In this document: one piece after another, positions 3,213 through 55,643 of the stretch | How the letters are laid out: each line of letters begins with the position of its first letter | Position numbering within the stretch: the stretch's first letter is position 1 | Source: Hydrurus foetidus | Taxonomy: Eukaryota | NCBI GenBank assembly: GCA_900617105.1 | Contig: UYFQ01000594.1 | Coordinates: forward strand, 1 to 64,000 | Reading direction: 5' to 3' | DNA: 64,000 nt | Translations under genes and position numbers: made by a program | Notes under the pieces: generated by a model | What the model saw: the letters and a program-made list of their open reading frames with translations, nothing else | What the model was told of the DNA's origin: nothing | The model's database searches: none

Positions 3213-3375
3213 CACCCCTAATGTCATAAGCATTCAGGCGGTACATTTGTATTTCCTCGTGAAAATGTAACACAAATCATGTTTGTATCTATCGTAAGCT
3301 ATAGTGATCAGACAAGTTTTGTTGCTAATAAAAATTTGAAAAATAGCTCAACTGTAAGTCAATAATGTGAAGTAC

Positions 3376-6300: not shown

Positions 6301-8265
6301 TGGCACGCGTGACATCTTCAGGTAAGATGTCGCAGTTTAGAAATGTCCCAGCTCTCAACGCAGAAATGAATTTCTGATCTGGTGGGAATCCCAAACTCGC
6401 TTGCAAACGGCGTGCATCGATGCTTCTCTGAACTTCGCGTTTCGAGAATTTGGCTTCGTTGGCTTCCGTTGTGGCAAGTTTTGTAGAGTATAATATGTTC
6501 ATAGATGATGTTTCTATCACCACGGAGTGAGCATATGCAGTTCTGCGCTCTGCGGCGTCAGAATATCTCGGCTCTGGAGGCGTTGCCAAATCGTTGACAT
6601 ATAGCCCTCCACGATGTTGAAATTTGTAGGTATTCTGATCAGTATGAAGCAAAAATGCATCTTGATCTATTGTAGAACCCTGGCGAAACTCCCAGTTGTG
6701 TCCTTGCAGCAGACAATCCGATGCCGAGATGATGGAGAGTCCAGCACGTGGGTCAAAGTGAACGATGCCAATGTCGCGAAGGTTTGCTGTTTTAGTTACA
6801 GTGAGAGAACCATGCAAGCCATTGAATACAGTTGGAGTGCATGTCACAATGTTACTCAGCACATCTGCACATGTGATAATGGTGCCTGTAGCTCCTGTGT
6901 CGAAGATGGCCTCCGATGTACTTCGTTGATTGATGTTACGGTTGGCGGAAAAATCGGTCCGAGGACCGAGGGTTGCGAGTTTCACCGGTGAGGTGGTGTA
7001 GCACACACTACAGTTCCTTTCGTCATATTGGTTCTCGTCATCCTCTTGATCCCACATTTGGCCAAAAGCAGTGTAGACATCATCTGAAGCACTGGAGTCA
7101 ACTCCATCAGTATGTCTCCTGGCCGAATATGATATTTGTGGGGCTGAAGGGGGCTCTCCAGCGGCCTTCTTTCTGCACTCACTAGCACGATGTCCAGCCT
7201 TTCCACAGTGGTAACACGTTCCACTGAATTTACCCTCCTTCACATCTTTAGCAAACGTGACTTTAGGTTCCTTGATTTTCGCTGGGTTAATTTTCTTGGC
7301 TTTTTCTTTGACGGGTGATTTCTCTCCCTTTGGGGACCCACCCGGTTTGACGGGGTTCTTCGCTGCAAGTGCCGTATGGGGGTCACTATCGCTGATTGCA
7401 ATGCGCTACCCTTTGTCCCACGATGGAATCTAGTTGCTCCATTAATTGCCTCCACCAGGGTCTTCGGATAGATGTCAATTGCGGTGCACTCCAGGGAATT
7501 ACTGAGGTAGTTTTTGTAGTCGTGGTAGACCTGCACGGTACTACTCAGACCATCAATGAACCTCATAGATTGTTGTTTTGCATCTGGAATTTGTGCTGCT
7601 GGAACTCCTGTTGCAGCGAGTCGATCAAAAAGCTTCACCGCACGACGTCCGTACGTTACGATGTCTTCGCCCGTACTCATGGTGAGTGTATACCAATCCC
7701 GTAGGGCCTGGGACCGCTCTAATTCCTGATTCCCATCACATCTTGATGTGACTACTGACTTGATTACATCAAGTAGTCCAAGTGGGTCGTCAAATTTGAC
7801 AGCGATGAAGTTTGCCTCCACTACCAGAATTGCATTGAGTGATGGTGAACACATCGATCGAATCAGTCGATAAGCTGATCTACGGTCCTCCATTTGCTTT
7901 CTCCTCATCTTTGTCACGACCGCTCTGTCGTTATTCAGGTCTGCCATTATTAACTTGGCTCGAAATCCTTTTGGATCAGTGATTTCGTCCAACGCCTCCA
8001 ATGCAGTGAAGTCTGGTTCCGAAAATAGGTACACCTCGTAGGCCGGTTTTAGGGTCAGCATCATAGGGTCGGGACAGATCGACTCGAGATCCTGAAAGTT
8101 GACTCTCATGTACTCTTTCAGTCTCTGAATGTTATCGTCCCATTCTTTCCACCCGTTGTGAGTGATCTCAGGGAGACTCTCTGGCCTCACACCATCTCCA
8201 GGCGTGGTTTTTTCGGCCTTCTCAGATTTGGATTGGGCAGCGCCCTTCTCGCCTTGCTTGCTCAT
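3376..8265 (-). CDS. Copia gag-pol polyprotein, interrupted at ~7380, ~4511 and ~3840
   Basis: Gag 8265-7380; zinc knuckle CYHCGKAGHRASEC; protease FDTGA; integrase HCD..FTSDNE..IER; RT KARF..G, DVGSAYLNA, KALYG, YVDD; RNase H IDAA..SSTESE..EQDNQS..SDYFTKPL. Confidence 0.93.
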
Positions 8266-8291
8266 TCTGAGCAGCTCACGACTTCTAATTA

Positions 8292-9596
8292 TCTTGGAAT
8301 AAGTCTGCCTTTTGGATCCTGGATCCAGTCAGAGCACCTGGTTGATAGCAGTGGTTCGTTCAGAACACACTTTGCTTTCAGCTAGTCGACCAAGTCGTTC
8401 CAACAGCTCACTCAAGTGTAGGTATAATGGCTCACAGCCATATAGTCTCTTTTAATTAGAAGTGCTCATCATGTCAAAACAAAGCAGTTCATGGCTAGCT
8501 ATACTAGCTATAGTTGACTGTTCACAGTCATCATCAGTTGCAACTTCCAGTACAGTTCGAGTGATGGTCTTGAGTCTGAAAACGCTACCCTCGCTCCTCC
8601 GCTTGGGCTTAGATGATATTACCCCAAAGGGATTTCCCCCAAGGGGATCGTCCCCGTAGGGATAGCTATGCTATAGAGTGGGGGACCCTTTATTTCTTAA
8701 AAACTCCAATTAAGAACGCTTTATTTTCCAAAATTTTACGGAAATGACTCTAAATCCGTGAAATAAAATATCGTTTAAAGGGTGATTATAAGACCTCTGA
8801 GAAGTACGAAATCGATATCCGGAATGCGGAAAGCGTCTCACACGGATTTTTTAAATACGGAAATGGCATAGTTGGGATCTGACATTTTTCAAAACCTCAA
8901 TGGAACATCACAATCGACACGAGGCATTCTCTGCAGATCACACCAGATGCAGCAGCTGACCAATAAATCCCGCTGCTGTGGCTTTTCTCCAACTCTGGTT
9001 TGCATGGGGTGTTTTGCCCCCCTCCATGTTCGCTTTCTCCTCGAAAAACTTTTGAACAACTTTCTGAACAACTTTTGGTGCAATCGGCACTGTTTTTTTC
9101 ATAGCAGCATTCTCTTTCGCTGAGGCCATCATGATCAAAAAAGGATTCATATTCTTGGATACGGGGGAGGGCAATTTTGCAACGCAGACAGATACTGATC
9201 TTTAAAACGTCAGAAAGTTGTCGGGACACGTTTGCAATTGTCGCAAAGTTGCAGCAGGCAACGTTTCCTTTCCATCCTACAGGGACCGATTGAACTATCT
9301 TTCGGTTAACCGGTTAGCTTTGCTACCAGATTCGGCTAGTTGCAGAATCCGTTTCACGAAAATTGGGCTAAATTCGTACATTGATTTCAATTAAGAAATG
9401 ATTATTCTGACACATTTAGACCCCCCAAACATAACTCCTTTCCAGTCATCCATATCAAAAATTAGATAGCCTCCAATTTTCTAGAGTATCAGACGAGTAC
9501 AGAAATGTACTCAGAAGTACCATCCGGTTGATGGTCCGTTTACTGGAATTAATCTTGGAGAGCAGTTCTTAATTAGGTCCCCCACTCTATCCAACA
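8292..9596 (-). repeat. Copia 5' LTR, split by a 912-bp TIR element near its outer end
   Basis: 8292-8675 matches the 3' LTR up to CTATA. The remaining TCCAACA resumes at 9590-9596. Confidence 0.93.
8676..9587. mobile_element. Non-autonomous TIR element with TA TSD
   Basis: 12-bp TIRs GAGTGGGGGACC / GGTCCCCCACTC. The empty site CTATATCCAACA is known from the sister LTR and shows a TA duplication. Confidence 0.9.
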
Positions 9597-38524: not shown

Positions 38525-39853
38525 ATCTTGAAATATTAGTGTCCTGTTAGTGACATATACACGCACCACATTTCTCATTTCTCTTCATTCTCCTGTGACG
38601 CAGTCTAAGCGTATGTCGAAATGTTCTTGAAATCCTTCTTGTATCCTATTTAGTACCCAACTCCATCTTCCTCTACCTCGTTCTCTTCTTCTCCTCCTCT
38701 TTCTTCTTCGTAACTGTAATTTCAACGACGAAGAAAAATTTTTCGAAGAAAGCGAACGTAACTTTTTTTCTCTCATATAAGAATTGACTTATTGATGAGT
38801 TACAGCATCTAAAGCATTTAAATATTGTGCGAAGGAAAGTGCAAAGAAGCAACTTAGTCACGCAATTAAATTCTACAGAATTTGTATGAGAATGAGATTG
38901 AACACGTATTTTTTTTAAAAGTGAATGGAGTTTTTATTTTGCTGATGCGGTCAGTGATAAATTTGAAGTGTGACATTTAACAGTGATGAGCTTGTGCTAT
39001 TGCTGGGCGATTCAAATAGTAACACTGAGGATATGAAGACGTCTCGCTGGGCCCGGGCCCACAGAGCCGTTTTGAATTAATTAATTAATTTTCGAATTTT
39101 ATGTGGGCCCAGGCCCATGGCGTGCATCGCGTCGCCAACAGCATCGATGATCACTCATACGTGCCGTTCTCCACACTTCACTTCATCTTCCAGAGTCCTG
39201 AGCGACTCATATCAAAACCATCGTTTTGGGATTTCAGCTTTTTTTCCTCTTCGATTCCCAAACAGCTTCGACTGCCGGAACAAATTTCGTGAGGAAATTC
39301 GCGCTAGCTACTCTGCGATTTGGGATTTTTCGTAGATACCACCTGTCGGATCAACGAGCGCTGATTGTCCGCACCGTTTGCTCGAGGTATCATTAGTCGC
39401 CGACATCATAATGCCTGATTTGACGCCTTCCTATGATCACTGAGTAATTAAACGCTGGCAAATTTCAAAACAGGTGGCGAATTTGGAGTTTCATCGTCGG
39501 AGACTAGCTCAGAGCAACGAGCGCTGTTTGCCCGCACTGTTAGCGAAAGGTATCATTTGTCGCAGTCGTCTGAATGCCTGATTTGACGCCTTCCTGTAGG
39601 TCAATGATCAATAAAACGACTAAGACAAAAAAAAAAATTATCTGGAATTCGAGATTTTTGATAGGGGCTCGCTGTCGGATCTTTAAGTAAAGCGCCCTGT
39701 TTGCTAGAAGTAGCATTTAACCTCACCGCGGGCGTTCTGACTTAAATTTAACATACTATGTATTTATGTACTTTTCAGAAAGCGGGAGCATACGATATTC
39801 TCTTGTGGTAGCACTCTGCCGCCTCCCCCTTTTGGTCAGTAGTTCGATTCCCG

Positions 39854-41225
39854 ATGTCGTCAGACTCTTCCGACGACGACAGTCTTTTTGAGCTTGATAT
39901 CTCAGAGGAGAAAGTTGCAGACTCAGACCAAAACATTGGTCTTGTTGTAGAAAGTTATAGATTTAGTAGAGGTGAAAAAGGACGACTAGTAACAACTCAT
40001 TGTAATCCAAGATCTTTACAGAATGATCAGTACTTAACCTTATCGAGAAAGATGAATAAAGTCGGGAAAGAACTGGATTCGAAAGTTGGGAAAGAAATAT
40101 TTTGGGAATCAAGTTGAGAAGGCATTAATACAGCCCAGTAAATCTCTTCAAGTGGAGAAACCTCTGTTTTTGAAGGTTTCCTCGTTAAGCATTTCAGTGT
40201 CAGATCGAGTTTCTCATACGACACCTACCACTCTCCCAAGTACATATGTTCCTGATCAAATGGAAATCACATCGCTGCTGCTTATTCAACGATTAGATTC
40301 AACTCCTGCTGTTTTGCCGATCCCTACTATCATCTGCATCCCACCACCGGTTCCAATTTCGGCCATAATTGAGGAAGATGAAAATACAAGTAACGAGTTG
40401 TACGGCTTTCGTTGGGCGAAGAGTTCTTGTTCCTTCGACACTATTTCTACAATTCTTCTCTATTTCTACATTTCCTTATCTCGTGATCAGAGAGACGAAT
40501 TTCTGACGGTGATTCCAATCTTCAGGGACAACTTCGAGAATGTCATGATGTCATCAGTCACATCATTAGCTCATGCAAAAGAAAAATTGGTGCATTTTTT
40601 CATGGGAGGTGTAGAGCCCAAATTTGTCACTGAAACGCACTACGCGGTTGAAGCAGTTTATGATCATATCATGCGATCAATCACTGATCAAGGCGACTTT
40701 ATGAGAATTCATTATACTATTACAAGTCACTGTGACGATACTGAATGTATAGGCTATGGGTCAAGAATTCGTGGTCAGAATCGTCATGTATCTTCATTTG
40801 AGAGCTGCACTTTACTGGACGGAAACTATGATACCGATGTGCATGAATTAGTTGAAAATTACTGGGCTCGAAAAGTTCATACTTGTCAGTCATGCAAGAA
40901 ATTGCTAAATGTTACAAGGGACTTCTCTAGTCAGAATCCGATCATGATCACAGTTAGTGTCAACCTTATGGACACATTGATCGATTCATCCATCAACCAC
41001 AAGGGGTCTGACTACTCCTTATTTGCTGTAGCTTACACCGACGAAATTCACTACATTGCCAGAATCATTATAGATAATACAGTTTACGAGTACGATGGAA
41101 TGAAATATACTGGTCAACTTCGATTAATTGAATGTCAAGATCCGTTTGCCCGATGAATAAAAACTTTGTCAGGGTCAAAATGTAAGGCACAAATGATCTT
41201 TTACAAAATAGACAATATTGTTTGA
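39854..41225 (+). pseudogene. Transposon-borne papain-fold cysteine protease, USP/peptidase C19-like
   Basis: Cys box GFRWAKSSCSFD; Zn pairs HCDDTEC / TCQSC; His-Asp box YSLFAVAY..HYIARI..YEYDGM. Frameshift at ~40100 and in-frame TGA at 41154, after which plausible sequence continues (KAQMIFYK). Confidence 0.65.
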
Positions 41226-41629
41226 GTGTGAATAAGTTATCGGGTATTTTATTTCTTAACACAATTCATTTACAACGAGCATAAATGCAACCAAAAGTTC
41301 ATATTGATATCACATAAACTAAATTTTGATCACCTATAAAATATTAAGCCCATATCTTTTTTTCGGATCATTACACTTTTTTTAACAACTTAAATAAAGA
41401 TAAACACAGATACCTCTCAGCCATTGAAATTCTTATCTTTTTTTGCTGAATCTTTTAAGGTAGATTCCGTCTCATCGGGCCCGGCCACGGGCCCGGGCCC
41501 AGCGAGACGTCTTCATATACGGAAAATGTCGACACGGAAACTGACGCGAAAGTGACCGAAAAGCGTGAAAACCGAGAACTTCAGTTCCTGATCTGTTACT
41601 TTTCACTTTCTGTGGCACACGGGCTATTA

Positions 41630-41849
41630 TTACCGTAGCAGAATAAAATGTCTGCTTTTCGTGCCCAAAACTCAGACACCTCGGGTCACGTCCAAATCAC
41701 CCCACACAATACTAAAAAAGCAAAAAATCTGGGGAACCTTCCTCTTTATGATTTTTAGTATGGTGTGGGCTCCGTTTTTGACCATGCCACACACACGTTT
41801 GAGTTGGATTTTGGGCATGAAAAGCAGACATTTTATTCTGCTACGGTAA
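41630..41849. mobile_element. 220-bp MITE with ~40-bp TIRs and TA flanks
   Basis: TTACCGTAGCAGAATAAAATGTCTGCTTTTC(G)TGCCCAAAA ... TTTTGGGCA(T)GAAAAGCAGACATTTTATTCTGCTACGGTAA, with TA on both sides. Confidence 0.85.
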
Positions 41850-41854
41850 TATAG

Positions 41855-44800
41855 TTCTATTCCCAAAAGCTTTCCACTCTCCTATTTCGTACGTTCGCGT
41901 AAGTACGGTTGACCCAAGGTCCCCACTTACAGCACCGAGTATGAACACCGACAAACGCGCACGTACCCGACCTCTCATTTAGCTCACAAAACCCGTCGCT
42001 GGACTTGGCACCGTACTTATGCGTACGTGCGCACCACATTGGTGGACTTGGTCACTCATAAGACTTGTTTTGTTACATTGGGGTTCGCTCTTGTGAGCAC
42101 GGGGAAAGTATCTCCTTCTTCTAGAAGGTTCTCCATGTGGATTGTTATGGCTCCTTCCCCCAGTGAACACATGAGTGGTCAGATAAACAAAACGATAGAT
42201 AAAATGATAGGCATGGTTGGCTACGGGGTGTGAAAAAAGCTCGGCACTCGGCGGCGCAGTATTTACGAAATATGCAAATTGGTATGCTGCACTCTACGCT
42301 ACAGTATGGGCAGGCGTGCAAATCAGTACTGTACGCTTGTGCGAGGTTCAGGTTTGAAAAAAAAATCACATCGAGGTCCAGGAATTCCACGAAGTGGAAA
42401 TCTTCTCTACAGTCCAGAGAACCTATGTTGGAATCCGCTCACTACTCCCACCTTCAGATTCTATTCCCAAAAGCTTTCCACTCTCCTATTTCGTACGTTC
42501 GCGTAAGTACGGTTGACCCAAGGTCCCCACTTACAGCACCGAGTATGAACACCGACAAACGCGCACGTACCCGACCTCTCATTTAGCTCACAAAACCCGT
42601 CGCTGGACTTGGCACCGTACTTACGCGTACGTGCGCACCACATTGGTGGACTTGGTCACTCATAAGACTTGTTTTGTTACATTGGGGTTCGCTCTTGTGA
42701 GCACGGGGAAAGTATCTCCTTCTTCTAGAAGGTTCTCCATGTGGATTGTTATGGCTCCTTCCCCCAGTGAACACATGAGTGGTCAGATAAACAAAACGAT
42801 AGATAAAATGATAGGCATGGTTGGCTACGGGGTGTGAAAAAAGCTCGGCACTCGGCGGCGCAGTATTTACGAAATATGCAAATTGGTATGCTGCACTCTA
42901 CGCTACAGTATGGGCAGGCGTGCAAATCAGTACTGTACGCTTGTGCGAGGTTCAGGTTTGAAAAGAAAAATCACATCGAGGTCCAGGAATTCCACGAAGT
43001 GGAAATCTTCTCTACAGTCCAGAGAACCCATGTTGGAATCCGCTCACTACTCCCACCTTCAGATTCTATTCCCAAAAGCTTTCCACTCTCCTATTTCGTA
43101 CGTTCGCGTAAGTACGGTTGACCCAAGGTCCCCACTTACAGCACCGAGTATGTACACCGACAAACGCGCACGTACCCGACCTCTCATTTAGCTCACAAAA
43201 CCCGTCGCTGGACTTGGCACCGTACTTACGCGTACGTGCGCACCACATTGGTGGACTTGGTCACTCATAAGACTTGTTTTGTTATATTACATTGGGGTTC
43301 GCTCTTGTGAGCACGGGGAAAGTATCTCCTTCTTCTAGAAGGTTCTCCATGTGGATTGTTATGGCTCCTTCCCCCAGTGAACACATGAGTGGTCAGATAA
43401 ACAAAACGATAGATAAAATGATAGGCATGGTTGGCTACGGGGTGTGAAAAAAGCTCGGCACTCGGCGGCGCAGTATTTACGAAATATGCAAATTGGTATG
43501 CTGCACTCTACGCTACAGTATGGGCAGGCGTGCAAATCAGTACTGTACGCTTGTGCGAGGTTCAGGTTTGAAAAAAAAAATCACATCGAGGTCCAGGAAT
43601 TCCACGAAGTGGAAATCTTCTCTACAGTCCAGAGAACCTATGTTGGAATCCGCTCACTACTCCCACCTTCAGATTCTATTCCCAAAAGCTTTCCACTCTC
43701 CTATTTCGTACGTTCGCGTAAGTACGGTTGACCCAAGGTCCCCACTTACAGCACCGAGTATGAACACCGACAAACGCGCACGTACCCGACCTCTCATTTA
43801 GCTCACAAAACCCGTCGCTGGACTTGGCACCGTACTTATGCGTACGTGCGCACCACATTGGTGGACTTGGTCACTCATAAGACTTGTTTTGTTACATTGG
43901 GGTTCGCTCTTGTGAGCACGGGGAAAGTATCTCCTTCTTCTAGAAGGTTCTCCATGTGGATTGTTATGGCTCCTTCCCCCAGTGAACACATGAGTGGTCA
44001 GATAAACAAAACGATAGATAAAATGATAGGCATGGTTGGCTACGGGGTGTGAAAAAAGCTCGGCACTCGGCGGCGCAGTATTTACGAAATATGCAAATTG
44101 GTATGCTGCACTCTACGCTACAGTATGGGCAGGCGTGCAAATCAGTACTGTACGCTTGTGCGAGGTTCAGGTTTGAAAAAAAAATCACATCGAGGTCCAG
44201 GAATTCCACGAAGTGGAAATCTTCTCTACAGTCCAGAGAACCCATGTTGGAATCCGCTCACTACTCCCACCTTCAGATTCTATTCCCAAAAGCTTTCCAC
44301 TCTCCTATTTCGTACGTTCGCGTAAGTACGGTTGACCCAAGGTCCCCACTTACAGCACCGAGTATGTACACCGACAAACGCGCACGTACCCGACCTCTCA
44401 TTTAGCTCACAAAACCCGTCGCTGGACTTGGCACCGTACTTACGCGTACGTGCGCACCACATTGGTGGACTTGGTCCCTCATAAGACTTGTTTTGTTATA
44501 TTACATTGGGGTTCGCTCTTGTGAGCACGGGGAAAGTATCTCCTTCTTCTAGAAGGTTCTCCATGTGGATTGTTATGGCTCCTTCCCCAGTGAACACATG
44601 AGTGGTCAGATAAACAAAACGATAGATAAAATGATAGGCATGGTTGGCTACGGGGTGTGAAAAAAGCTCGGCACTCGGCGGCGCAGTATTTACGAAATAT
44701 GCAAATTGGTATGCTGCACTCTACGCTACAGTATGGGCAGGCGTGCAAATCAGTACTGTACGCTTGTGCGAGGTTCAGGTTTGAAAAGGAAAATCACATC

Positions 44801-45198
44801 GAGGTCCAGGAATTCCACGAAGTGGAAATCTTCTCTACAGTCCAGAGAACCCATGTTGGAATCCGCTCACTACTCCCACCTTCAGATTCTATTCCCAAAA
44901 GCTTTCCACTCTCCTATTTCGTACGTTCGCGTAAGTACGGTTGACCCAAGGTCCCCACTTACAGCACCGAGTATGTACACCGACAAACGCGCACGTACCC
45001 GACCTCTCATTTAGCTCACAAAACCCGTCGCTGGACTTGGCACCGTACTTACGCGTACGTGCGCACCACATTGGTGGACTTGGTCACTCATAAGACTTGT
45101 TTTGTTATATTACATTGGGGTTCGCTCTTGTGAGCACGGGGAAAGTATCTCCTTCTTCTAGAAGGTTCTCCATGTGGATTGTTATGGCTCCTTCCCCC
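41855..45198. repeat. Tandem array of 604-610-bp units (5 full plus 1 partial), made of the YR element's terminal repeats
   Basis: Units start TTCTATTCCC at 41855, 42459, 43064, 43674, 44278 and 44887, and differ at only a few sites. Confidence 0.97.
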
Positions 45199-45227: not shown

Positions 45228-46451
45228 TCACACTGCACCAAGCGGCAGCCAACTTCTCACATCGTCCGTACTTGGTTGAGTACCCCCGACCAGAGAGTTC
45301 GACGACAGTGGTCCGTGTCCTCCTGCAGAGTAGTCGTAAACGGCTCTCATGACCGTGGACCCTTGGACGTAGTTCCCTCTATCGATCATGTCTAGCTGCG
45401 ATACCCCCATAGCTCTCATCTGCGTGGTCGCTGCTTTCCGAAGAGAGTGCGATGAGAAATAGTCCGCCGGTAGTCCGGCATCGCGACACGCTCCCTTAAC
45501 AGTCTCTCTCACCATTCTTCCCTGAAGTAGTTTCCTGTCTACTTTCCCTGACTGTCGCTCCAGATACCGACAGAAGAGCTCGTCTGAAGGCAGCACCTTC
45601 GAGAAAGCTATGAACGTAACTAGGTTCTATGGAAACTGACTCTCTCCCGATGATCGTCTGCAAACCGTCTTGGCCTTCACGGGTGCTTTAGTTTTCTGGG
45701 ACGCGGTAAGTACTCGGAGCCCCAGTACGTGCGAGGCTGGAGCTCTACCCTCCCTTAGATCCCTGAAGAAGGACGCCCCGCCACCCACTTGGTAGCTTTC
45801 CGTAGCCCCTCGGATTCCAAACACCAAATCGCTGCACCTAACACTGTGATCCCCCGCTCCCACCTCATGGGCGGTGTACTCGGATAACCGAGCGTCCATG
45901 TCGTAACCCCACATGCACCCAATGTAGGTCATCCTGCTATCGATATCCCCTCGTTCCCACCCCCTGCCAGCCCAGAGCTTCACCCTCATGTCCTTGAGTA
46001 AGCTCTCGCACAGCGGCAGCTTCACACTCCCTTTGGGTCCCCCGTCTTTCTTCGCCCGCAACTCTTTCGTGCTCATGCGGCATGCTGTTCGTGCAGCCGC
46101 TACTATCGCTGAATCCAGAAAAGCGGTTGACTGTAGCGCCGCTGCGAACTTCAGTCGGATCCCTGCCGTCACAGAGGTGGCCTGCTTCCCCCGCATCCCC
46201 TCGTCATAGCGTGATTGTAGAAAGAGGCCCACTATGGCCGGTTTGTCTTCCTCCAGCCATTCGCTTAGCAGGGGGTCCTCGGTGTCTAGGTCCTCATATA
46301 AGAATCTGCACCACTTGATCCAGTGCCCTTCGTATGCTTTTGCTGTCGCCGCAGTGACCGACTGCGCTACGAACGACCCCACTCCCGCCCTGCTGAGCTC
46401 CGGTAACTGGCGCCGAAGACCTAAAGAAAGAGTGAGGGGGTCCAGGGACAC
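45228..46451 (-). pseudogene. Tyrosine recombinase with one in-frame TAG at 45627-45629
   Basis: N-terminal TAKAYEGHWIKWCRFL; catalytic ARLSEY, SQKT, SHSLRKAATT, RGNY..AVY. The two ORF-track pieces are in the same frame. Confidence 0.9.
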
Positions 46452-46483
46452 GGCGGGTAAGGGTGTTAGTGCGATGTAGATGT

Positions 46484-48990
46484 CTATGAGGCTATGGCCT
46501 CGACTATCTTATGCCAAAAAGTTATGAAGTTGACTTCATTTATAAATGGCTCGCATGGACGGCAGCTCTCTATAAGCTGTAGCACCCGACTGTCCTCGCC
46601 CAGTTTAAGATCCGGTACCCCTCTCAACCCTAGACCTGCTAAGACCTCATCAACCGTCCTCCCTGACTCTGATACTCTCGAGAGCTGATCACAACGAAAG
46701 TTTGCCTCCCCCGAGATATGCGTTGCGACCTTGGCTTCTATGCCGTACGATACACACACTAGAGTGTACACCATTGCGGCGTTCGATACTTGACTCCCAC
46801 GGGTTCTCTCCTTTTGAGCCCATGTAAGTGCAGATATACTGTCTCCACGTATCTCGATGTCCAGGTGTGTTACACCTAATCGCACTAACCCTAGAATTCC
46901 GACTATTGAGCCGATGAACTCGCACACATTCTGAAACTTCGACTCCGTCACGAAGCCGAGTTGTCGGAGATCTACCGCACTGGCCCCCACACACACCTCC
47001 GAGTCGCGGTCCCTTCTATAAATGAGACAACCTGCACCGTGCAGTGAAGCATCCGTCTCGACAATGTACTCAGTCACATCACTTTTAATGATGCGAGGGT
47101 TCGGGTGAACCTCTGTTCGTTGTAGCGAACGAGGAATAGGATTGCTCGCCAGCATCTGATTGCTATTTAGGTTTCCTCCGCGAGAGTAAATGTCGCGTGG
47201 CGGTCTAGTCTGCCTGCCATCGCTCTATTCAGAGCCCCACAGAAGGGGCGCATGATTCGACATATGCGTCCGTATCGACTCCCCCATGATGCCAATCTCT
47301 GTATGGTCTTCAGGGACATCTTCCCACTTAGGTTGATAGCCATGAAGCCGTGGACCGCCCTGAGGAAATTCTTCCTCGCGATTGAAACTAGTTTTAGGTT
47401 TAAATCGATCGTGTAGCCTATGACTTTGAGTCGTGTGCCCGTCTCGGACTTCTCATCCGCCACTGCCTTGGGCCCCAAAAGACTAGTGCAGATGTCCTTG
47501 GCGAGCTCCATGTCAGATGCCAGGTCAGACTGAAAGCAGACTCCTATCACGTCGTCCACGTACATCTCTGTGGAGCTTCTCAGAGCTCGGGCGAATTCCC
47601 ATTTCAATGCCCTTGTCACCACCTGGAACGCTGCTGGTGTGCATGCCCAACCAAATATGCCACAGAGCTGTAAGTAGATGAGGTCGCCTGTTACTTCCAT
47701 GCCAAACAGGCTGACATCGTCCGGTCGGAACGACAGAAGGGTATATGCACCTTTCAGGTCCATTTTCCAGATTCTCAAATCGCTCCAACTCTTCCCTGAA
47801 TGGCTCGCCCCATTCACCGTAAAGAAGTCTAATATCATGACCGCTATGTCATCTATAGTCGGATGACGAATAGGCCCATAGTAGTCTTCTGCTTCCTTGG
47901 TTGCTTCTTCTGTGTTGAGTGCAGTCCCATCCACGTACGTCATATCGCCTATCGGACGCCCAGATTTCTTGCCTCTCTTCTGCGCCCAGTGTGCTGTGCA
48001 CAGATGCAGTCTAGGGATGGTGTCTATCGCTAGACTCTTTGGCAACAGGAACCCTAGACCACCTGACACGGTCTCGCCTACCATCTTATTCACAGCTTGA
48101 TGGACCTTCAGGTAGGAGGTGCGGAGCGGTGTCAGAACACCTGCACCGTTCGGTTTGAAGCCGGCCGGTATTGGAACACGCATTCCCACAGCCAAGTCGC
48201 GCAACAGCTCTAGTTCCGGGTTATCGGCTGCCAGTCTACTGATGCGCTCCAGATTAAGCCGACTAGATTGCAGTGTCGTCAATCTAGTCCTTACCATATC
48301 CGAGAAGTCGTGATTTGCTTCTTTGAAGGACTTTAAGTCGTTCGCAAGCATGTCCTCCGGAAACTCGTATCCCTGTGCCCACTCCACAGCTTCAACTACG
48401 CCGTAGTTTGTGGCTGCCATATCCTGCGCATCTTTCACAGTTTCCACCAGATCCGCGAAAGGGAATACTTCCCCTGGTGCGAAGTATGATGCCATGGTGG
48501 CCATTATTCCACGTATCGTGGCTGATTCTACGCACTCTAGAGTGTGCTCCTCCTCCAGCGACCGCATGTAGGCGGGCATTCTATCTGGAAGAGTCTCCTC
48601 TTCATCACATCTGGATGACTGCATGTGGGCAGTCACCGCATCAGATCTCGCTATTAGCACATCTTCAGCAGGTGTTCGCATGTGGGCGAACGCTTTGTCG
48701 GATCTCATCCTCGAAAGGACTCCAACCGATGCTTGCATGTGAGCCAACATCGTGCCCTGCCCCCTTGCTACCTCCATTCTATCAGACGTTTGCATGTGGG
48801 CAAACATCGAGGTGTCTCTGCATGTCTCCTCTTCAGATGGCTTCTGCACGTGAGGTAGCTTCAAGCGAGATCTCTTTCTACACTCCTCATCTCTCCCTGC
48901 ATCCTCACCCGCACTTGATGCCGCCCCACATCGACCAGGGTTCCATTGCTTGTCCTGTGGTTGACTCCGCGGAGTGCAACCACCTTCATC
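46484..48990 (-). pseudogene. YR-element pol: reverse transcriptase plus RNase H (in-frame TAA at 47167, frameshift at ~47087)
   Basis: KMDLKGAY, IFGWACTP, YVDD, VIGYTID (RT); TDASLHGAG, NVCEF, RGDSISAL, HISGEANFRCDQLSR (RNase H). Confidence 0.92.
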
Positions 48991-50640
48991 TCACGCCTTT
49001 GCTCTCATTTTCTTCAGTGCCGCGTCCCGCAAGTTCTCAGGTAAACATTTGATAGCGACGGAAATATCCGCCTTGGCAAGGGCGGATACGTTGCAGTGCT
49101 CCTTGGGACAGGCCGCGCCTCGTGTGCACACCACTAACTTTCCATTCTCTTTCTTGGCTGCAAAGTGTGCCAGCACATCATAGGAGCAGATGACACTCGC
49201 ACTAGGGGCCGCGACCGCCTTCTTTGCTCCAGCAGCGCTAGGTGTAGCGGTGCCCTTGCGAGGTGTTAGTGCTAGGGCGGGCTTGATGTATGTCCTGAAG
49301 TGCAGGTCTTGTAGGAGCACTTTGTCTCCACACAGGCTTTGTACTGTCGCATCCATCATGGCTGACAGGAGGATCGCACAACCGGACGGTGTGTGCATCG
49401 TAAGCTCTGGAAAAGACCGTGACTGTCGCTCCGTCCGGACCGATGAGCCCCATCGCTCCAGGCAACTTTCCATCGCGTGTTGAAGCAGATCATCAGGTAC
49501 TAGCTTCAATGGATCAGCTGCTCCTATGAGTGCCACACGTGTTTGCTGGAAGCAGTCCAGGAAACTCCCCGAGTAGAACACTCTCATAGCCATCTCCAGG
49601 GTTGACAGGTCCTCTGCCACCTGGCGACGACCCTGCAGGGTAGGTTTGCTCTGTAGGGTGACCCCCGGTGATAGGCGGAAGTCACTCAGCACTATACTCC
49701 CACCACGTCCAAATTTGGCCTGGAGAAACGCTGTAAGGGTTGTGACTTCAGTCGCCACTTTCAGCGTTGCAATTTGGAAAATCAAAGGCGCCCCTGAGAA
49801 GGGTCCCATAGAATCCAAAAATGGATCAATAGCTGCTGCCCAGATGTATCTTAAGTACTCCTCCACCTGTAGAAGATTTCCTCTCCCAGCCACCTCAAGT
49901 TCTCTTCCTTTCGTCAGTCTCCAGACTGGTCCCAGTATAGCCTCTCTCTTCGAAGACTGTGTCATGTCGCGACACAGCCGACGGCCTCCATCTAAGTCAT
50001 CCAAATATCCCCTAGCTACCGTCTCACCTGTCTTCTTCAATGACGTTGTGCTGGCTCCCTCAGTCTGCTCCTCGACACTTACTGCACCCGACTCTGAAAT
50101 GTTGCCTAGATTGGCACTGTATTCTTCTGCGGACTCTTCGTTGATTCCCATAGGTACCACGAACCTCGATGGAGTGCTAAACTTAACGAAGGATCCTGCG
50201 AGAATAGTGAGGTCGGAGAAAATTGTACCCAGAATTCTTGTCGTTGTCGGCGTAATCGAGATGATTATCGCGAGCACCCAATTGAGATCAGCTACTGCGT
50301 CGCCGTTCAAAGTCTCCCCCTCATCGAGATCCTCTGCAGGCCACATGATAAACGTCGCTGCTGTTACATCGACTGCTCTTCTAATTGTAGACAGTTCTAC
50401 AGCGAAACGCTGCCCCTCTTCTGTTAGATTGTTTCCTGTCATTGCAGCTGCTGCCGCCAATCTTGCAGCAGTTGTGTCTGAAATGATATGGAAACGTGGT
50501 CCGATCACCGCATCGGTGTCTCTATTGTGCCTTTTCCTCGAGACTTTCGTCGACGAGTTACTCGAAACGTTCGTCGCACCCACGTCCTGATTGTAGATAT
50601 CTATCAGGATGTTTGCGATGACGTCTGTCGGTGCGCTCAT
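48991..50640 (-). CDS. gag-like ORF1 of the YR retrotransposon (~549 aa)
   Basis: Long open frame from MSAPTD, ending in a Cys/His finger (ICSY...CTRGAACPKEH), in the ORF1 position upstream of pol. Confidence 0.8.
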   Translation of the reverse strand: MSAPTDVIANILIDIYNQDVGATNVSSNSSTKVSRKRHNRDTDAVIGPRFHIISDTTAARLAAAAAMTGNNLTEEGQRFAVELSTIRRAVDVTAATFIMWPAEDLDEGETLNGDAVADLNWVLAIIISITPTTTRILGTIFSDLTILAGSFVKFSTPSRFVVPMGINEESAEEYSANLGNISESGAVSVEEQTEGASTTSLKKTGETVARGYLDDLDGGRRLCRDMTQSSKREAILGPVWRLTKGRELEVAGRGNLLQVEEYLRYIWAAAIDPFLDSMGPFSGAPLIFQIATLKVATEVTTLTAFLQAKFGRGGSIVLSDFRLSPGVTLQSKPTLQGRRQVAEDLSTLEMAMRVFYSGSFLDCFQQTRVALIGAADPLKLVPDDLLQHAMESCLERWGSSVRTERQSRSFPELTMHTPSGCAILLSAMMDATVQSLCGDKVLLQDLHFRTYIKPALALTPRKGTATPSAAGAKKAVAAPSASVICSYDVLAHFAAKKENGKLVVCTRGAACPKEHCNVSALAKADISVAIKCLPENLRDAALKKMRAKA

Positions 50641-50936
50641 GGTCCTTTTGCCGCTCAGATTTGCTAAAAGTAGGAAGAGTTTTGCAACTTTTTTGCAACC
50701 GTTGTCAGTACGACACTCCGGAAACTGAAAACTGAAAAAATCTCGGCACTCGGCGGCGCAGTATTTACGAAATATGCAAATTGGTATGCTGCACTCTACG
50801 CTACAGTATGGGCAGGCGTGCAAATCAGTACTGTACGCTTGTGCGAGGTTCAGGTTTGAAAAGGAAAATCACATCGAGGTCCAGGAATTCCACGAAGTGG
50901 AAATCTTCTCTACAGTCCAGAGAACCCATGTTGGAA

Positions 50937-53900
50937 TTGGCATTTCGCGATTCTACCACTTGTTTTTGAAATTCTGCTAGCAGAATTTATGTCTTTTTTG
51001 ACCCTTTTTTTGAGGAATTCTGCCACTTGTAAAAAGGAAGTTGCTGCTTAAGTTCGTATTGTGCCACTTTAAAAAACGGAATTTCCACTTTACATTTAAG
51101 TGATGCCATTTTAACGGTATCATTATGCTACTACGTACTTAAATTATGCTACTTAAAAAGTTGTTAGATCATTAATATTGCTTTCTAGATCGAAAATTCT
51201 CATTGTATCTGATCATTACCGAAGCTTCCTTATAATCATTCAGACATTGGTGCTGATGGTAATCAAAAAGGCAATTTAATAAAGAAAACACTCGCTCAAC
51301 TGATGCACTAGAGCACATCACTAATGCCACCTCAGCGGCCACCTTGTACCATAGGGGTAATGAAATATAATATCTTCTCCAAAATGCCCACCCGTCATCT
51401 TCTTCTCGGTCAAATCCGTCGACCAATTTCTTGTAAGTGTGTAGCTCTGCGTGCAGGCCATCAAATAGAGGCACCGCTACAGGCAAGTGCTGAATGAAAA
51501 CGATTTCTTCTTCGAGTGCCTCATATGTAGTATCTTTGACAAACTGGTAGCCAACAAGACGGCAACCTCTAAGTACTTGCAGGGTGTCCTTGAATCTTGT
51601 CAGCGAGTCTGACTCAATCTTCTCCAACACTACGACAGCTTTAGCAACAGTCTGCTGTATGAGTTCTTGTTGTCGAGGTAAGTTGTTTGGAGCTATTTGT
51701 GCAGCTACAGCAGTGCATGCTGAAACACAGTCGACCTCCATATATCTGTGGACGACATTCCTCATGTGATGATTGAGATTGTTCCATGAATCGAAAGCGT
51801 AGGGTGCTAGAAAACCATCTCCTTCAAAGTGGTTGCAAAAGTGTGCTATCGGTTCTCCTGCATCTTTGATGAGGGCCAACTCCAAGCGGAGTGCATCCTC
51901 ACCTGATGGAAGGTGATTACCAGCAGGGTTGTGGAGGATTCCTCGCAGCGTTTCCATCAGATTATCGCACCCAACATCTTGATTTTCTATTATGTCTCTG
52001 ATAAGGTCGAATCTGTCGTTTACTTGGACAGCAGTGCGAAACTCAGCCATCCAGCGAATGGCATGATTTTTCATGCCACCTTCACCGAGTGCTCTCCGTG
52101 TAGCGGCCCGAACCTTCGAACCTTGGGTCAGACATTGGCTCCATGCCTGAAGAAAGTTGTGCGCGGTCGGTGTCGCCTTCTCAAACAACTTCATGGGAAG
52201 GTTTGATGTATGCGAGACACATACGAGATCACTGCACTCTGCAAATATGGCCTTAATGACTTCATTGGCAACTCCATTAGTCGCACAGCCATCGACAGTG
52301 TTGAATCTCAGTTTCAGGGGATTCTGTTGTGCCAATGTCATTACTTGCTTGATGACTTGCGCTGCCAGAGAGTTGCCGTACAATGGACTCTCTAGGAAGC
52401 TGAGAGACAGGAGCCGCTGCTGAATAGCTTTTTTCGGGCAGACGAAGCGGACTACCTAAATTCAATCATTCAGTATTGGTCAGTAATGTTGATCACATTT
52501 TTTAAGGGAATTTGAATCGTAGGGAACTTACCACAGCCAGTGACTCAGCTACATTGATCGTTCCATCGGAGCTGATTGAGAAAGCTGCTGCTTCGTTGAG
52601 CTCACTGATTGTTTCTACATGCTCTTTTTTCCTTAACAGAGGGATCATGTCGCTGCATGCTTGCTTCGGGCAGATGGCATGGTAGTCTTCGAGTAGTAGA
52701 CGGATTTCACAACCGCTATCAAGCATCGTAAACGGCATTCCAGTTTTCAAGAGGGCGTGAGCTACTGACATACGATATGCGTTGACATTCAGAGGTAACG
52801 TTGCTCCTGCTGCTTTCTCTTCCGTTTCGTTCTCGGCTACCAGGCCTTTATAACTCAGCATTGTCAACTGACTCTTGTCTCTCCTCTTCATGTTATTTTC
52901 ATGCGTTTCGCCAGTGATATGACTCTTGATGCTGGAGGACTTCAGCGCTATTTCTTGCATTCCACAGGCTCGGCAGCACAATTTTCCTGCTACGACAGTG
53001 AGGCCACTTTCTGAGAACTCTTTGGCGCGATCGTAGACAGACTTCGCATTTTTTCTTGTTGTCGATCTTGCCTTTAATATCGACCTTTTGTATACACCCT
53101 TGCTTGTTCTTGTTTTTCTTTTTCTGTCAAGTTTACTTTTCTCAGGAAGGTCTTCATTTATCCTTTCTAATTTATTTTCGTTATCCGATCCACTATCTTG
53201 ATCCGATGGTTCTGGTGAACTAACATCATCACTGTCGACATTGTAATTTTTCTTGGGGACATAATCTTCCTCGTCATCCGAATCCGCGTCATCTGACGCA
53301 CAAATTTCTATTTGCTTAAAAACTCTCTTAGTCCCCTTTCTGGTAATAGCTTTGGGCTTTAGGGCAACTCTTTCAGAGGAGGTACTAGATCTGACGTCGC
53401 CTGCAGACCCGGCACCAGGCTTAAAGTAGGAATATACCGCCGTGGCTGTGGGCGTTGATGTATAATTGGAAGATGGCTGAGAAGCCGACGACGACGATGA
53501 CGAGCTGCATGGCAAATTTCGCCTCTTCATCTCACTGGCCTTGCTTTCATCATCATCCTCATCGGTATCGTAATCAGCAGTAATCTCTTGCATTCCGGTG
53601 ATATTTTGGCCGATAATTAAAAGTGGAGGATGCTCGAAATCAAGGTCAGAGAAGAGTGAAGCGATAGGCGGGAGCGGGAATGTAGTAAAATAAACCATCA
53701 TATCACAGCAGCCATCCAATCTTGCGGCTAAAAAAGAAATTTGGCTACTTTAAAATTGGAGAATGCTACTATTATGTTTTGATTTCTACTTAATTATAAA
53801 ATTATGCCACTACTATTTCCATTATGCCACTTATAATTTTGTCTTGCCACTTAGCATAAATAAGTGTGAATTTATGCCACTTGTTCTGCTAGCAGAATCC

Positions 53901-53959
53901 AAAATCCCTATAGGGTCAAATTCTGCTGAGCAACTGCTAGCAGAATCGCGAAATGCCAA
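50937..53959 (-). mobile_element. Apparently autonomous hAT transposon (3023 bp)
   Basis: 18-bp TIRs TTGGCATTTCGCGATTCT / AGAATCGCGAAATGCCAA; perfect 8-bp TSD TGTTGGAA (50929-36 / 53960-67); subterminal TGCCACT repeats. Confidence 0.95.
51172..53593 (-). CDS. hAT transposase, two exons (intron 52531-52456)
   Basis: Zn finger CCRACG..SHITGETH; SSDGT; GTAAG..TTTAG intron joins ESLAV|VVRFV in frame; TVDGCATN; CVSH; IRW; SSASVERVFS. The start could be up to ~110 nt further upstream. Confidence 0.92.
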
Positions 53960-55643
53960 TGTTGGAACCCGCTCACTACTCCCACCTTCAGAAAAAGGAA
54001 AGTTCACTTTTCCGTCGAAAGTTCACTTTTCCGTCATGTCGACATTTTCCGTATATCCTCAATGTAAGTAATTTTGAAGACGAATCTTCTCACAACCTGT
54101 TTAATTTGATCTGTTATTGCAGAAACCCTCTTGTTTGTTCACAGCAATGGTGAATATTTTTAGAGTGATCATGATCATTTTTAGCAGATACAAATTCGCC
54201 GCAACTGAACCCCCAGAATACTCCTTACAGAGTGTATTTTGTGAAAGTTTAATTACCTCGGCTATTAGAATGTAACTGATTCTTTTTGTCTTTAAAAAGA
54301 AAACAAGTAAAAAGTTTAATATGTGAAATTAGTTACAACATTTTGAATGCCACTGAAATTTACAAAATGCAAGCGTATTTACGTGTCATATCTATTATCT
54401 AACTCTGGTCTCCAAGCCTGAGTCTTGAGATGCGGCTCCGACTGTTCCACGATTTTGATCCTGGATTGTCAGGCACATTGGAAGATGAGATCAATTTTCA
54501 GAAGTGAAATATGAGCTGAAATGACCTCAACATCAGATTTGTCGAGGATTTCATCACCTGATGCGCTCGAAGACCTATGCTCTTCGAAGCTGGAGAAAGA
54601 ATCACAGCTCGGCTAGCATCGACATTTGGAGCCTACAAAAGCAAATACATTTTAAAATGGTGAGAGAGGTCAAATTTGATGTTGAGGAACGCTATCATCT
54701 ATTTTAGAGTATTTGCAGGGTGATTTTTGAGTGGATACATCAGAAAATGATCATTTTTCGACCACAGAATAAAGAGTTAAAGAGGTTGGTGGAGCAAAAA
54801 CTTTGCATTTACATCGAGTGAGCAACCATTCAATAATTTCTGCTCGTTTTGGGCTCCACCATGTCATATTGACGCCGCCTCCTGGGCAGCATTCTGCGTG
54901 AAAGTGTAATTTCTTGGTCCATAACACCTTTTCAGTCTTTCACCCACAACTATTTTCAATGATCGAATTATTGACTTCTGAATAGCGCATGTTGTAGACC
55001 ATGTAAAGATTAGTGATTTGGCCGAAGGGAATTGAATATAAAAATTTATTGATGATGATAGGGCACTAAACGTCAGTATTTTAAATTCTTCCTGTTACGG
55101 ATTTGAGAATCGTGAAAAAGTACCCAAAGTTTGGAAGTGTACCCAACTGTCATCCAGTATATTCGTCTCTGCGCACAATTCTAGCTGATACCAGAGCTCC
55201 ACCATTTCTCTAGCGGTGGAGCTTCTGAGTAGCTTGGGCTTCTCAAGAAGGCCAACTTTACCAGGTTCGATACTCAAATGTTGCTCTGGACTACAACTGA
55301 ATTTTGTTTTTGCAGCAACTTATGTTGATGATTTTCAAAACCTTGCTGACCCTCTTGCCACTCGTTTTGTTGCCCGAGAATCAGGAAAAAGTGCGAGCAC
55401 ATCGTAGGTCATCTGGATCCGCCGGTAATTTTCCAATTGATGGTGAGCTCATCTTTCTGTGAACATCCAAGTGCCATATTTTTTCCCTAAGAATTGGGTG
55501 ACTTTTTCTGATGCTGGAGTCTGGGAAATGTGTTTGATTCCCTGTAGTTTTGATTTTCATGTTGCATGATGACTTCTCCTCAATGGCTTTCAATCAGATT
55601 AGCTCATATATGTTCCTAACTCGAATTATCATCAGGAATTTCG

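Follow-up and report, generated by a model that had tools for sequence, protein, structure and literature searches.

The closest described systems are the Ngaro retrotransposons of Cafeteria burkhardae and Ectocarpus, which have three ORFs, and in the available text of their reports no mechanism is given for making the reverse transcriptase (RT) or the recombinase (PMC8547959, PMC12477816). More generally, in the accessible parts of the literature we found no explanation of how DIRS-order elements, which are drawn as three ORFs, control their output of the two enzymes, nor did we find a published description of gag-pol readthrough in this order. Readthrough of a gag stop codon is itself already known, from murine leukaemia virus (MuLV), Tj1 and Tca2. 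DIRS-order elements are described, in the text available, as having no protease (PMC3783388), and in the Cafeteria Ngaros it is ORF1 that is reported to set insertion preference (PMC8547959).

Here we analysed a 64,000-nt stretch of the Hydrurus foetidus assembly (contig UYFQ01000594.1; hereafter the window), which holds on its minus strand an element with the ORF order gag, RT/RNase H and tyrosine recombinase, without long overlaps (Table 1). Ngaro-type split direct repeats are present in the arrangement A1-(ORFs)-B1 A2 B2 (A1 53992-50733, B1 45198-44887, A2 44886-44658, B2 from 44588), with a 69-bp spacer added between A and B and the A-spacer-B unit amplified five-fold at the 3' end. The recombinase is of the tyrosine type, with HSLR as its His-X-X-Arg motif plus a downstream Tyr, and no methyltransferase, protease or DDE integrase was seen in the element; the RNase H frame ends at 46484 with no methyltransferase after it, and no Pfam match of that kind occurs in the window or in the homologous protein P0001. 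By its split repeats, ORF order and domains the element is a Ngaro-type recombinase retrotransposon of the order DIRS, and the tree of its relatives took in unnamed relatives and one Dinobryon model. The hAT DNA transposon at 50937..53959 is a passenger within A1 and lies outside the retroelement proper. No Pfam family matched the gag-like ORF1, and a protein atlas searched with Gag returned clusters without names only, with low recognition.

Table 1 Features of the Ngaro-type element in the window
Feature	Position	Strand	Remarks
First 33 bp of 5' repeat A1, true 5' end of element	53960..53992	-	matches start of internal A repeat
hAT DNA transposon inserted in A1	50937..53959	-	17-bp inverted ends, 8-bp target duplication; PF05699 E 0.0008, below cut-off
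Rest of 5' repeat A1	50733..50936	-	98-99.5% identity with five 3' copies
gag-like ORF1, 549 aa	48991..50640	-	ATG 50640 to TGA 48993-48991; Cys/His finger 34 residues before stop
Likely splice donor G/GTGAG in gag codon 205, phase 1	50021..50028	-	candidate partner of recombinase acceptor
gag stop codon UGA, in frame with pol	48991..48993	-	UAG in sister subfamilies
Purine-rich 7-nt spacer, first base G	48984..48990	-	sequence varies among subfamilies; length kept in the one readable
11-bp bulged hairpin, candidate readthrough stimulator	48957..48983	-	folding; common to a UAG subfamily
Further nucleotide-conserved stretch, weak	48895..48956	-	possible second stem 48940-48936 with 48899-48895; second phase-1 donor-like GT at 48908
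pol: ~160-codon low-complexity linker, conserved helical domain, RT, RNase H	46484..48990	-	PF00078 E 0.04; RT motifs
Likely recombinase splice acceptor, phase 1	46421..46471	-	branch-like motif, pyrimidine tract, TAG ending at 46421
Tyrosine recombinase ORF without early Met	45228..46420	-	PF00589 E 0.00028, 21.1 bits, below 27.1 cut-off
3' repeats: B1 (45198-44887), then five tandem A / 69-bp spacer / B units	41855..45198	-	element end = 41855

The gag frame continues past its UGA and stays open for 607 codons, to a TAA at 47169-47167, with the RT motifs MDLKG, GIFGW and YVDD inside and the first in-frame Met only at codon 62 after the stop, which bears out the original prediction that gag and pol lie in one frame across a single UGA. 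The further expectation that the other stops of this copy are private to it stood for the stop at 47169, which together with a 1-nt frameshift near 47082 breaks pol in this copy and differs in the contigs of all four runs. The 40 variants listed of a longer set include none for the stop at 45629-45627, which breaks the recombinase, but a sense residue occupies that column in five of six related recombinases, the sixth ending before it. An out-of-frame AUG starts one base past the gag stop and opens a frame of 43 codons. Re-initiation at this AUG was rejected, given the wrong frame, its shortness and the absence of the AUG from the sister subfamily with a readable spacer.

We next compared the stop across relatives, the sister subfamilies being known from variant positions and 30-letter loose ends in contigs of the four runs. 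The main subfamily keeps UGA at the gag end (majority contigs, all four runs); variants at 48991 and 48992 convert it to UAG in one subfamily (two of four runs), and loose ends at 48990 (three of four runs) and 48983 (two of four) place UAG at the same position in two more. Among ten metagenome loci, three include the gag end, and in each of these a single in-frame stop precedes pol in an open frame: UGA in L001, UAG in L004 and L005, with pol identities to the window of 44%, 37% and 38%, respectively. L004 and L005 are 85% alike, so the three loci count as two lineages. The seven loci outside this junction set are L002 (5' end a fold-back duplication), L003 (contig starting past the stop) and five that start inside pol. 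At all four DNA junctions the next 150 codons contain no stop in frame and 6-14 in each other frame, and across seven junction forms the stop is UGA or UAG, never UAA.

Among 17 close gag homologues, the end falls at the window's stop or one residue past it in 12, while one runs on and four break earlier; the finger motif is present in 110 of 166 gag homologues, 102 of which end 33-62 residues past it. The homologue that is 91% identical (P0129) has Arg at the stop position and runs straight into pol sequence before breaking again 105 residues later, and P0199 likewise runs straight into pol sequence, with Gln where three sister proteins stop. Each is a single record on one contig; they look like point mutants of an in-frame stop and confirm the shared gag-pol frame. 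Two annotated gene models (P0121, P0268) also run from gag into pol without a stop, but are known as protein models in which introns may have been modelled. As a weak indication, pol was matched by a single protein of 1064-3035 aa when 6113 candidates were scored, but by 398 of 7998 candidates of near length. Because UGA is kept in the main subfamily, UAG in its sisters and one in-frame stop in all three informative distant loci, these comparisons indicate that the gag stop is inherited and not a product of decay, as had been anticipated for both stop and frame. Viral contigs searched with the pol alignment, with the gag alignment and with the hairpin pattern gave no match; a prokaryote genome collection yielded a single contig, which does not include the junction, and no further contig from that genome; PDB sequences gave no match for pol.

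The four DNA junctions share no start codon for pol, their first in-frame Met lying at codon 62, 97, 26 and 32 after the stop; taken alone, the stop-free run up to that Met is not significant (shuffle P 0.06, 0.03, 0.64 and 0.35). The best Met column in the conserved part of pol holds Met in 13 of 120 homologues, and a 58% Met column in the pol alignment was discarded as an artefact that arises where called N-termini are aligned. In one subfamily an in-frame AUG stands at codon 14 past the stop (variant at 48950; P0001 cluster).

Folding confirmed the predicted 11-bp bulged stem 7 nt past the stop (spacer 48990-48984): it spans 48983-48957, with 7 bp, a one-base bulge, 4 bp and a 4-nt loop (-15.9 kcal/mol). 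Its stability exceeds chance locally. A 44-nt piece containing the hairpin had z = -2.65, with 3 of 200 shuffles equally stable, and in a 27-nt scan of the element only 2 of 5383 windows fold as well or better, the hairpin tying for most stable; six sampled stem pairs had pairing probabilities of 0.65-0.97 within a 500-nt context. Longer pieces are unexceptional (z +0.23, -0.36 and +0.43 for 74, 104 and 91 nt), and in a 44-nt scan 145 of 5366 windows fold as well as the hairpin piece. The plain hairpin dominates the predicted folding after the gag stop. An alternative 7-bp pairing of 48974-48968 with 48930-48924 could make a pseudoknot, but it includes three G-U pairs and competes with the upper stem, and the folding program used covers pseudoknot-free structures.

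The hairpin was also expected to be conserved with compensatory changes, and this held in part. It is kept within the close family: nucleotide depth peaks at 48925-48987, the region being common to several subfamilies with diverged flanks (summed depth ~2.5-4x the gag side), and the conserved stretch reaches some 30 nt past the hairpin. Two UAG-bearing contigs that begin at 48957 show 14 and 19 differences within 100-120 nt, of which the junction variant table places none in the stem. This table lists fewer differences than the pieces hold, and a change in 48956-48986 that it does not show must be present in two or more subfamilies. Compensatory changes were not seen among the close subfamilies, and no equivalent hairpin was found close to the stop of the three distant loci L001, L004 and L005, where pieces of 45-130 nt gave z from +0.4 to -2.1.

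Together with its next base, the window's stop reads UGA-G, that of L001 UGA-A, and those of L004, L005 and one sister subfamily UAG-G. The following base is thus G or A at all four DNA junctions, in place of the UGA-C (CUA or CGG) of Type II signals, and UGA-G differs from the permissive UGA-C context, which counts against readthrough. Seven of the 9 nt after the window's stop are purines, and the window, the readable sister, L004 and L005 all have G right after the stop, with 7-8 purines in the next 9 nt. Selenocysteine recoding was rejected, the codon being UAG in three sister forms as well as in L004 and L005; in 48700-49200, two weak, unrelated Rfam matches were obtained and no SECIS match.

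Turning to the recombinase, its start-less ORF is likely spliced onto the first 204 Gag residues, judging from a candidate donor at 50027 and acceptor at 46421. The donor, in gag codon 205, is the top-scoring one of gag under a rough generic matrix. GGT followed by AA or GA stands at the matching Gly in L001 and L004, and that Gly is present in 61 of 70 homologues; the Gly column at gag 195 is equally conserved (59 of 64) though the window has no donor there, and therefore protein alignment alone proves little for the donor. Recombinase acceptors are T-rich (0.36-0.5) in all seven sequences compared, and six of the seven have an AG-free upstream region and a branch-like motif by a loose pattern; this set leaves aside L007 (identical to L002 there), L009 and L010, in which no start of the recombinase can be recognised, and L001 and L004, whose contigs have no recombinase. 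Insertions of 2, 4 and 5 nt in other copies fall in the acceptor's pyrimidine tract. A recombinase made from such a spliced RNA would need no readthrough. We rank below it a phase-compatible post-stop donor at 48908 (2488-nt intron), with which the recombinase would need readthrough; this donor has a possible match in L001 (offset 88), none in L005, and GC in its place in one sister contig.

Given this arrangement, we consider it probable that programmed readthrough of the gag UGA makes a Gag-RT/RNase H fusion. A few ribosomes would pass the UGA on the full-length RNA to yield Gag-linker-RT/RNase H, and Gag would be in excess over Gag-Pol. If readthrough holds, the hairpin 7 nt downstream rather likely assists it in the close family. 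The recombinase would come from an RNA in which the donor of gag codon 205 is spliced to the acceptor at 46421. As there is no protease in DIRS-order elements, the two enzymes would remain joined to portions of Gag and so be brought into the particle. We give about even odds to the wider proposal that a broad clade of algal Ngaro-type elements, with one promoter and no protease, makes Gag by termination, Gag-RT/RNase H by UGA/UAG readthrough and an N-terminal-Gag-recombinase by a conserved 3.6-kb splice from mid-gag. Under that scheme every enzyme would be a Gag fusion.

Other routes to pol must be weighed against readthrough. That pol is made separately from a linker AUG, through an internal promoter, re-initiation or internal entry, with the conserved post-stop stretch as the signal and the shared frame as a relic, seems to us unlikely. 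Tca2, of the same layout, is described in the text available as carrying a minor promoter at the gag-pol junction, and its junction alone directed no readthrough in a yeast reporter (PMC2194720); here, the AUG at codon 14 in one subfamily and a repeated His/Tyr-Met motif that gives several in-frame AUGs would serve such a route, as would conservation extending some 30 nt past the hairpin. The Met position is not conserved, however, and a relic frame should drift, yet all four DNA junctions are in frame and open in lineages at 37-44% identity; L003 adds 96 further open codons without Met, and Pol in Tca2 itself followed the LTR promoter, according to the same text (PMC2194720). Splicing from the mid-gag donor to a linker acceptor, skipping the stop, is decidedly unlikely, even though the element has likely spliceosomal signals and every linker offers phase-1 YAG sites (10, 7, 15 and 21 within 600 nt). 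A spliced pol mRNA had been named as evidence that would speak against the original prediction, but the pol linker has no acceptor like those before the recombinase: among the four most pyrimidine-rich phase-1 sites per linker, none combines T-richness, an AG-free upstream region and a branch-like motif. Nor could the stop serve as acceptor, as UAG gives phase 0 and the UGA forms have no AG; several contigs have lost the CAG close by, at 48957-48955, and splicing would not hold gag and pol in one open frame.

Two readings concern the stop codon itself. A-to-I editing, guided by the nearby structure, could turn UGA or UAG into a Trp codon; stop codons are known to be edited in this way in hepatitis delta virus and in certain fungi, and one edit would suffice for each of the seven junction forms, which are never UAA. 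Readthrough also disfavours UAA; the stop sits outside the stem, and we know of no A-to-I stop editing in stramenopile nuclei, leaving editing very improbable. We give as little credence to the stop being a nonsense mutation (for example CGA to TGA) in a once-single gag-pol ORF of a decayed copy, or to a host that reads UGA as sense. This copy does have two other stops and a frameshift, and P0129 has Arg at the stop, but that single record is broken again downstream, and the nonsense-mutation reading is already contradicted by conservation among the sequences compared, with the stop in majority contigs of all four runs, UAG in sisters and an end there in 102 of 110 homologues. As for UGA as sense, UGA ends the recombinase ORF of this element and UAG its RNase H.

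If readthrough of the gag stop is correct, the element offers exact candidate answers to how its enzymes are made, namely a readthrough cassette of 40 nt at the stop of gag and a single splice for the recombinase. Stop-codon readthrough would then reach a third major retroelement group and stramenopile ribosomes, in elements without a protease, and the Gag part on the recombinase would give a direct reason for the ORF1-dependent target choice of the Cafeteria Ngaros. For annotation, it would mean that gene prediction truncates pol to an arbitrary Met and overlooks where the recombinase begins.

Among known systems, as described in the available text of the reports, the Type III cassette of MuLV shares with this locus one in-frame gag-pol stop followed by G, a purine-rich spacer of 7-8 nt and then RNA structure (PMC3159437, PMC2194720). 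It differs in that the stop here is UGA (UAG in sisters), the structure is a predicted simple hairpin rather than a shown pseudoknot and is not found in distant relatives, there is no protease, and the locus is known from sequence. Alphavirus-type Type II signals likewise place, 7-12 nt past UGA, an 11-bp stem whose 5' arm has a one-base bulge, but combine UGA-C with loops of ~100-150 nt and compensatory changes, in contrast to UGA-G, a 4-nt loop and no covariation seen here (PMC3159437). An in-frame UGA between gag and pol is found in Tca2 of Candida albicans (PMC2194720) and in Tj1, Tcry1 and Tosmo1-3 of fission yeasts (PMC10085805), Tca2 also having a purine-rich spacer and predicted structure (PMC2194720); these are, however, Ty1/copia and Ty3/gypsy elements with integrase and protease (PMC2194720, PMC10085805), and the fission-yeast elements use UGA-CU, which is absent at the junction here (PMC10085805). 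The Ngaros of C. burkhardae (PMC8547959) and Ectocarpus (PMC12477816) match the element in split repeats, in the ORF order gag, RT/RNase H and tyrosine recombinase, and in having no methyltransferase, protease or DDE integrase. Unlike the Ngaros described there, the element has gag and pol in one shared frame across a conserved stop and a start-less recombinase preceded by a likely acceptor; its A and B are separated by a 69-bp spacer, and the A-spacer-B unit forms a five-fold array.

On re-examination, the junction between gag and pol was as originally described in its coordinates, frame, spacer and stem (see table), and the first in-frame Met past the gag stop lies at codon 62, in line with the claim that no ATG occurs for about 60 codons. 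Conservation of the stop across copies, which had been predicted, was borne out by contigs from four public sequencing runs: the majority contigs over 48890-49090 retain the UGA, and in a minor subfamily two base changes (rows 48991 and 48992; two of the four runs) turn it into UAG. Two further forms, seen as diverging contig ends at 48990 and 48983, carry UAG at the same position after gag-like codons, and the one with a readable spacer has 7 nt, most positions of which differ. The 17 close gag homologues mostly stop where the window does: 12 at that position or one residue beyond, with four breaking earlier and one running on. A gag profile search across 1.84 billion representatives matched 286 proteins, and the 150 listed were combined with the close set (n = 166); a Cys/His finger motif is present in 110 of these listed and close homologues, of which 102 end 33-62 residues past the finger, five end sooner and three run on. 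Some of these ends may be contig ends; the tight spread of distances after the finger points to real stops. The gag stop in frame with pol is a real, conserved feature.

Features of the retroelement, its gag-pol junction and the inserted hAT transposon
Feature	Position	Strand	Details
Retroelement genes		-	549-aa ORF1 (gag); RT/RNase H gene (pol); tyrosine recombinase gene
Repeat A1	begins 53992		split by hAT transposon
hAT DNA transposon	50937-53959	-	3023 bp, 17-bp inverted ends, 8-bp target duplication
Gag stop	48993-48991	-	UGA
Spacer	48990-48984	-	7 nt
Hairpin	48983-48957	-	11-bp stem with one bulge
Repeat B1	45198-44887
3' tandem array after B1	41855-44886		five units of A + 69-bp spacer + B; element ends at 41855

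The frame relationship extends to distant relatives, as had been predicted. Three of ten metagenome loci include the gag end, and each has a single stop there (L001, UGA; L004 and L005, UAG) directly past which the pol frame begins, staying open for 614-791 codons. Their pol identity to the window is 44%, 37% and 38%, respectively; L004 and L005 resemble each other at 85%, and a tree of 20 sequences places the window, L001 and the L004/L005 pair on separate long branches. At all four DNA junctions, the 150 codons past the stop, a stretch that in some extends into conserved pol, contain no in-frame stop and 6-14 stops in each other frame. Run-on proteins provide a natural test of the shared frame: P0129 has Arg at the gag-stop position and continues with linker sequence until the next break, and P0199 has Gln where the sister proteins P0142, P0151 and P0161 stop, reaching the conserved pol domain 260 residues on. 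Each is a single record, whereas the stop-bearing clusters have several members. Two gene models, P0121 and P0268, are open from gag through into pol, at the level of the models rather than the underlying DNA. P0121 was the only pol match among 6113 long candidate proteins; near-length candidates gave 398 of 7998. This 1584-aa Dinobryon divergens model carries an insert of ~300 residues (~590-890) between Gag and RT, part of which, judged by eye, resembles a SET domain; Pfam returned no SET match in P0121.

Among the element's 5383 windows of 27 nt, only 2 equal or exceed the stability of the hairpin (-15.9 kcal/mol); a 44-nt piece containing it is equalled or exceeded by 3 of 200 shuffles and by 145 of 5366 windows of that length. 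In a 500-nt context it persists, with probabilities of 0.65-0.97 for six sampled pairs, and z-scores vanish for pieces of 74-104 nt; its stability is a local feature. Summed contig depth over 48925-48987 is ~2.5-4 times that of the gag side because this stretch is common to several subfamilies with diverging flanks. None of 24 variant rows falls within 48956-48990, in a table that omits some differences. Two UAG-bearing contigs begin at 48957, a position that, given how de Bruijn assemblies are built, would mean that their first 30 letters are common to other copies, yet they differ from the window at 14 and 19 places overall; at least two subfamilies must carry a change in 48956-48986 that goes unseen. 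The predicted conservation stood in part: the hairpin is kept in the close family, but no compensatory change in the stem could be shown in the contigs of the four runs, and in L001, L004 and L005 purine-rich sequence is retained past the stop without an equivalent hairpin. The hairpin is thus under selection within the close family and plausibly stimulates readthrough there, but on the sequences compared it does not belong to the signal universally. Judged by eye, the diverging contig ends of sister forms lengthen a possible second stem that pairs 48940-48936 with 48899-48895. In L001 (2617-2665), a 9-nt spacer after the UGA precedes a possible H-type pseudoknot with 4-bp and 6-bp stems, also by eye; folding z-scores for this region are not significant.

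The recombinase appears to be expressed differently. The first Met of its frame comes at codon 105, which is 55 codons beyond the point where conservation starts. A phase-1 YAG with a T-rich run lies just before the conserved start in seven of seven sequences, with an AG-free stretch and branch-like motif upstream in six; insertions of 2, 4 and 5 nt occur within this tract in further copies. The best gag donor, G|GTGAG, sits at 50027 and shares that phase; a second phase-compatible donor lies past the gag stop, at 48908. In the three gag genes read as DNA, the codon of the matching Gly, which precedes a conserved DxDG by 10-15 residues, is GGT with AA or GA after it; GGT makes up only 6-19% of their Gly codons, with only two GGT-AA/GA sites per gene. 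This Gly is present in 61 of 70 gag homologues; in 47 of the 61 the next residue is E, K, M, T or N (background, 25%). Since another Gly column ten residues earlier is equally conserved and not a donor, it is the DNA cases that carry weight. A likely conserved splice from 50027 to 46421 (3607-nt intron) would join Gag residues 1-204 to the recombinase, which lacks an early start codon, a reading that draws on the window, L001, L003-L006, L008 and L011. The last, a relative of this eukaryotic retroelement, sits on a 2.4-kb contig assigned to a bacterial metagenome-assembled genome and is most likely a binning contaminant.

Could pol be reached without readthrough? An independent start within the linker seems unlikely. 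An in-frame AUG is present at codon 14 in one subfamily, and the Met-free run past the stop is not significant on its own (P 0.03-0.64); the first Met lies at codons 62, 97, 26 and 32 in four sequences, and in 120 pol homologues, 117 of which reach an invariant Trp, called starts lie 2-304 residues before it, with no shared start Met in the conserved part of pol (best column, at most 13 of 120). Splicing into pol we consider somewhat more doubtful again: in four linkers, none of the four phase-1 sites per linker that are richest in pyrimidines combines a T-rich run, an AG-free stretch and a branch-like motif. Because such acceptor signals precede the recombinase and none was found among these sites in the pol linkers, splicing likely serves the recombinase rather than pol.

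RNA editing of the stop is very improbable, and so, to a like degree, is its origin by decay or a code change. The window copy does carry lesions of its own: contigs of all four runs differ from it at 47169 and have a one-base insertion near 47082 (40 variant rows listed, 883 more), so this stop (47169-47167) and frameshift are private, as anticipated for the former. The recombinase stop (45627), also expected to be copy-specific, is a sense residue in five of six related recombinases, the sixth being too short. The gag stop recurs in sister forms and distant loci.

The repeat order follows the Ngaro plan A1-[ORFs]-B1 A2 B2 described in PMC8547959. The hAT transposon interrupts A1, the 5' repeat, ~33 bp from the element's end and has probably cut the retroelement off from its start. 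The five ~605-bp A-spacer-B units are 98-99% identical, through either unequal exchange among B copies or an effect of assembly. The element's ends correspond to the two halves of its internal B-A junction, and no target duplication was seen. Next to the 3' end lie two pairs of inverted repeats, one of 43 bp with 138 nt between the arms (41628-41851) and one of 30 bp with 2428 nt between them (39031-41518), the latter enclosing a 366-codon ORF; both are possible small DNA transposons. The pol linker (48810-48560, minus strand) contains about six short Ala-His/Tyr-Met-Gln/Arg repeats, retained in proteins P0001 and P0002, and the contig 5' end of L002 (~30-170) folds back almost perfectly as a duplicate of the start of pol, probably a chimera that arose in amplification or assembly. 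Elsewhere, a copia-type LTR element (2823-8675, minus strand; 384-bp repeats, 99.5% identity) has long overlapping frames at 8328-7243, 7405-4514 and 4562-3834, all in different frames. Metagenomes from freshwater sediment, biofilm, water and air contain sequence near-identical to the window, and named relatives are gene models from two chrysophytes only, Dinobryon divergens and Ochromonadaceae sp. CCMP2298, which makes a chrysophyte alga of fresh water the probable host.

Taken together, we consider it probable that full-length RNA would yield mostly Gag by termination and, by readthrough of its stop, a small amount of Gag-linker-RT/RNase H, with spliced RNA giving Gag(1-204)-recombinase. The frame, the conserved stop and the splice-like signals are observed, whereas readthrough, splicing and the part played by the hairpin are inferred from them. 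In search listings and abstracts, in passages of the papers cited here and of PMC12440569, and by term search in supplementary files of PMC12477816, we came across no description of readthrough for DIRS, Ngaro or PAT elements; reviews by Poulter and co-workers or Repbase entries may hold one. A known recoding strategy would operate in a retroelement group for which we found no such description, the in-frame gag stop of an Ngaro-type element standing alongside a likely recombinase splice. DIRS-order elements are described with three, often overlapping, ORFs and without protease (PMC6681497, PMC3783388, PMC3266345, PMC7192593), and two TATE copies a single ORF (PMC3783388). In-frame gag stops occur in Tj1, Tcry1 and Tosmo1-3 (PMC10085805) and in Tca2, whose junction by itself gave no readthrough in a yeast reporter (PMC2194720). 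The MuLV gag stop, a UAG with a purine-rich 8-nt spacer and a pseudoknot, is read through at ~5% (PMC2194720), and stems 7-12 nt past the stop are common readthrough stimulators (PMC3159437).
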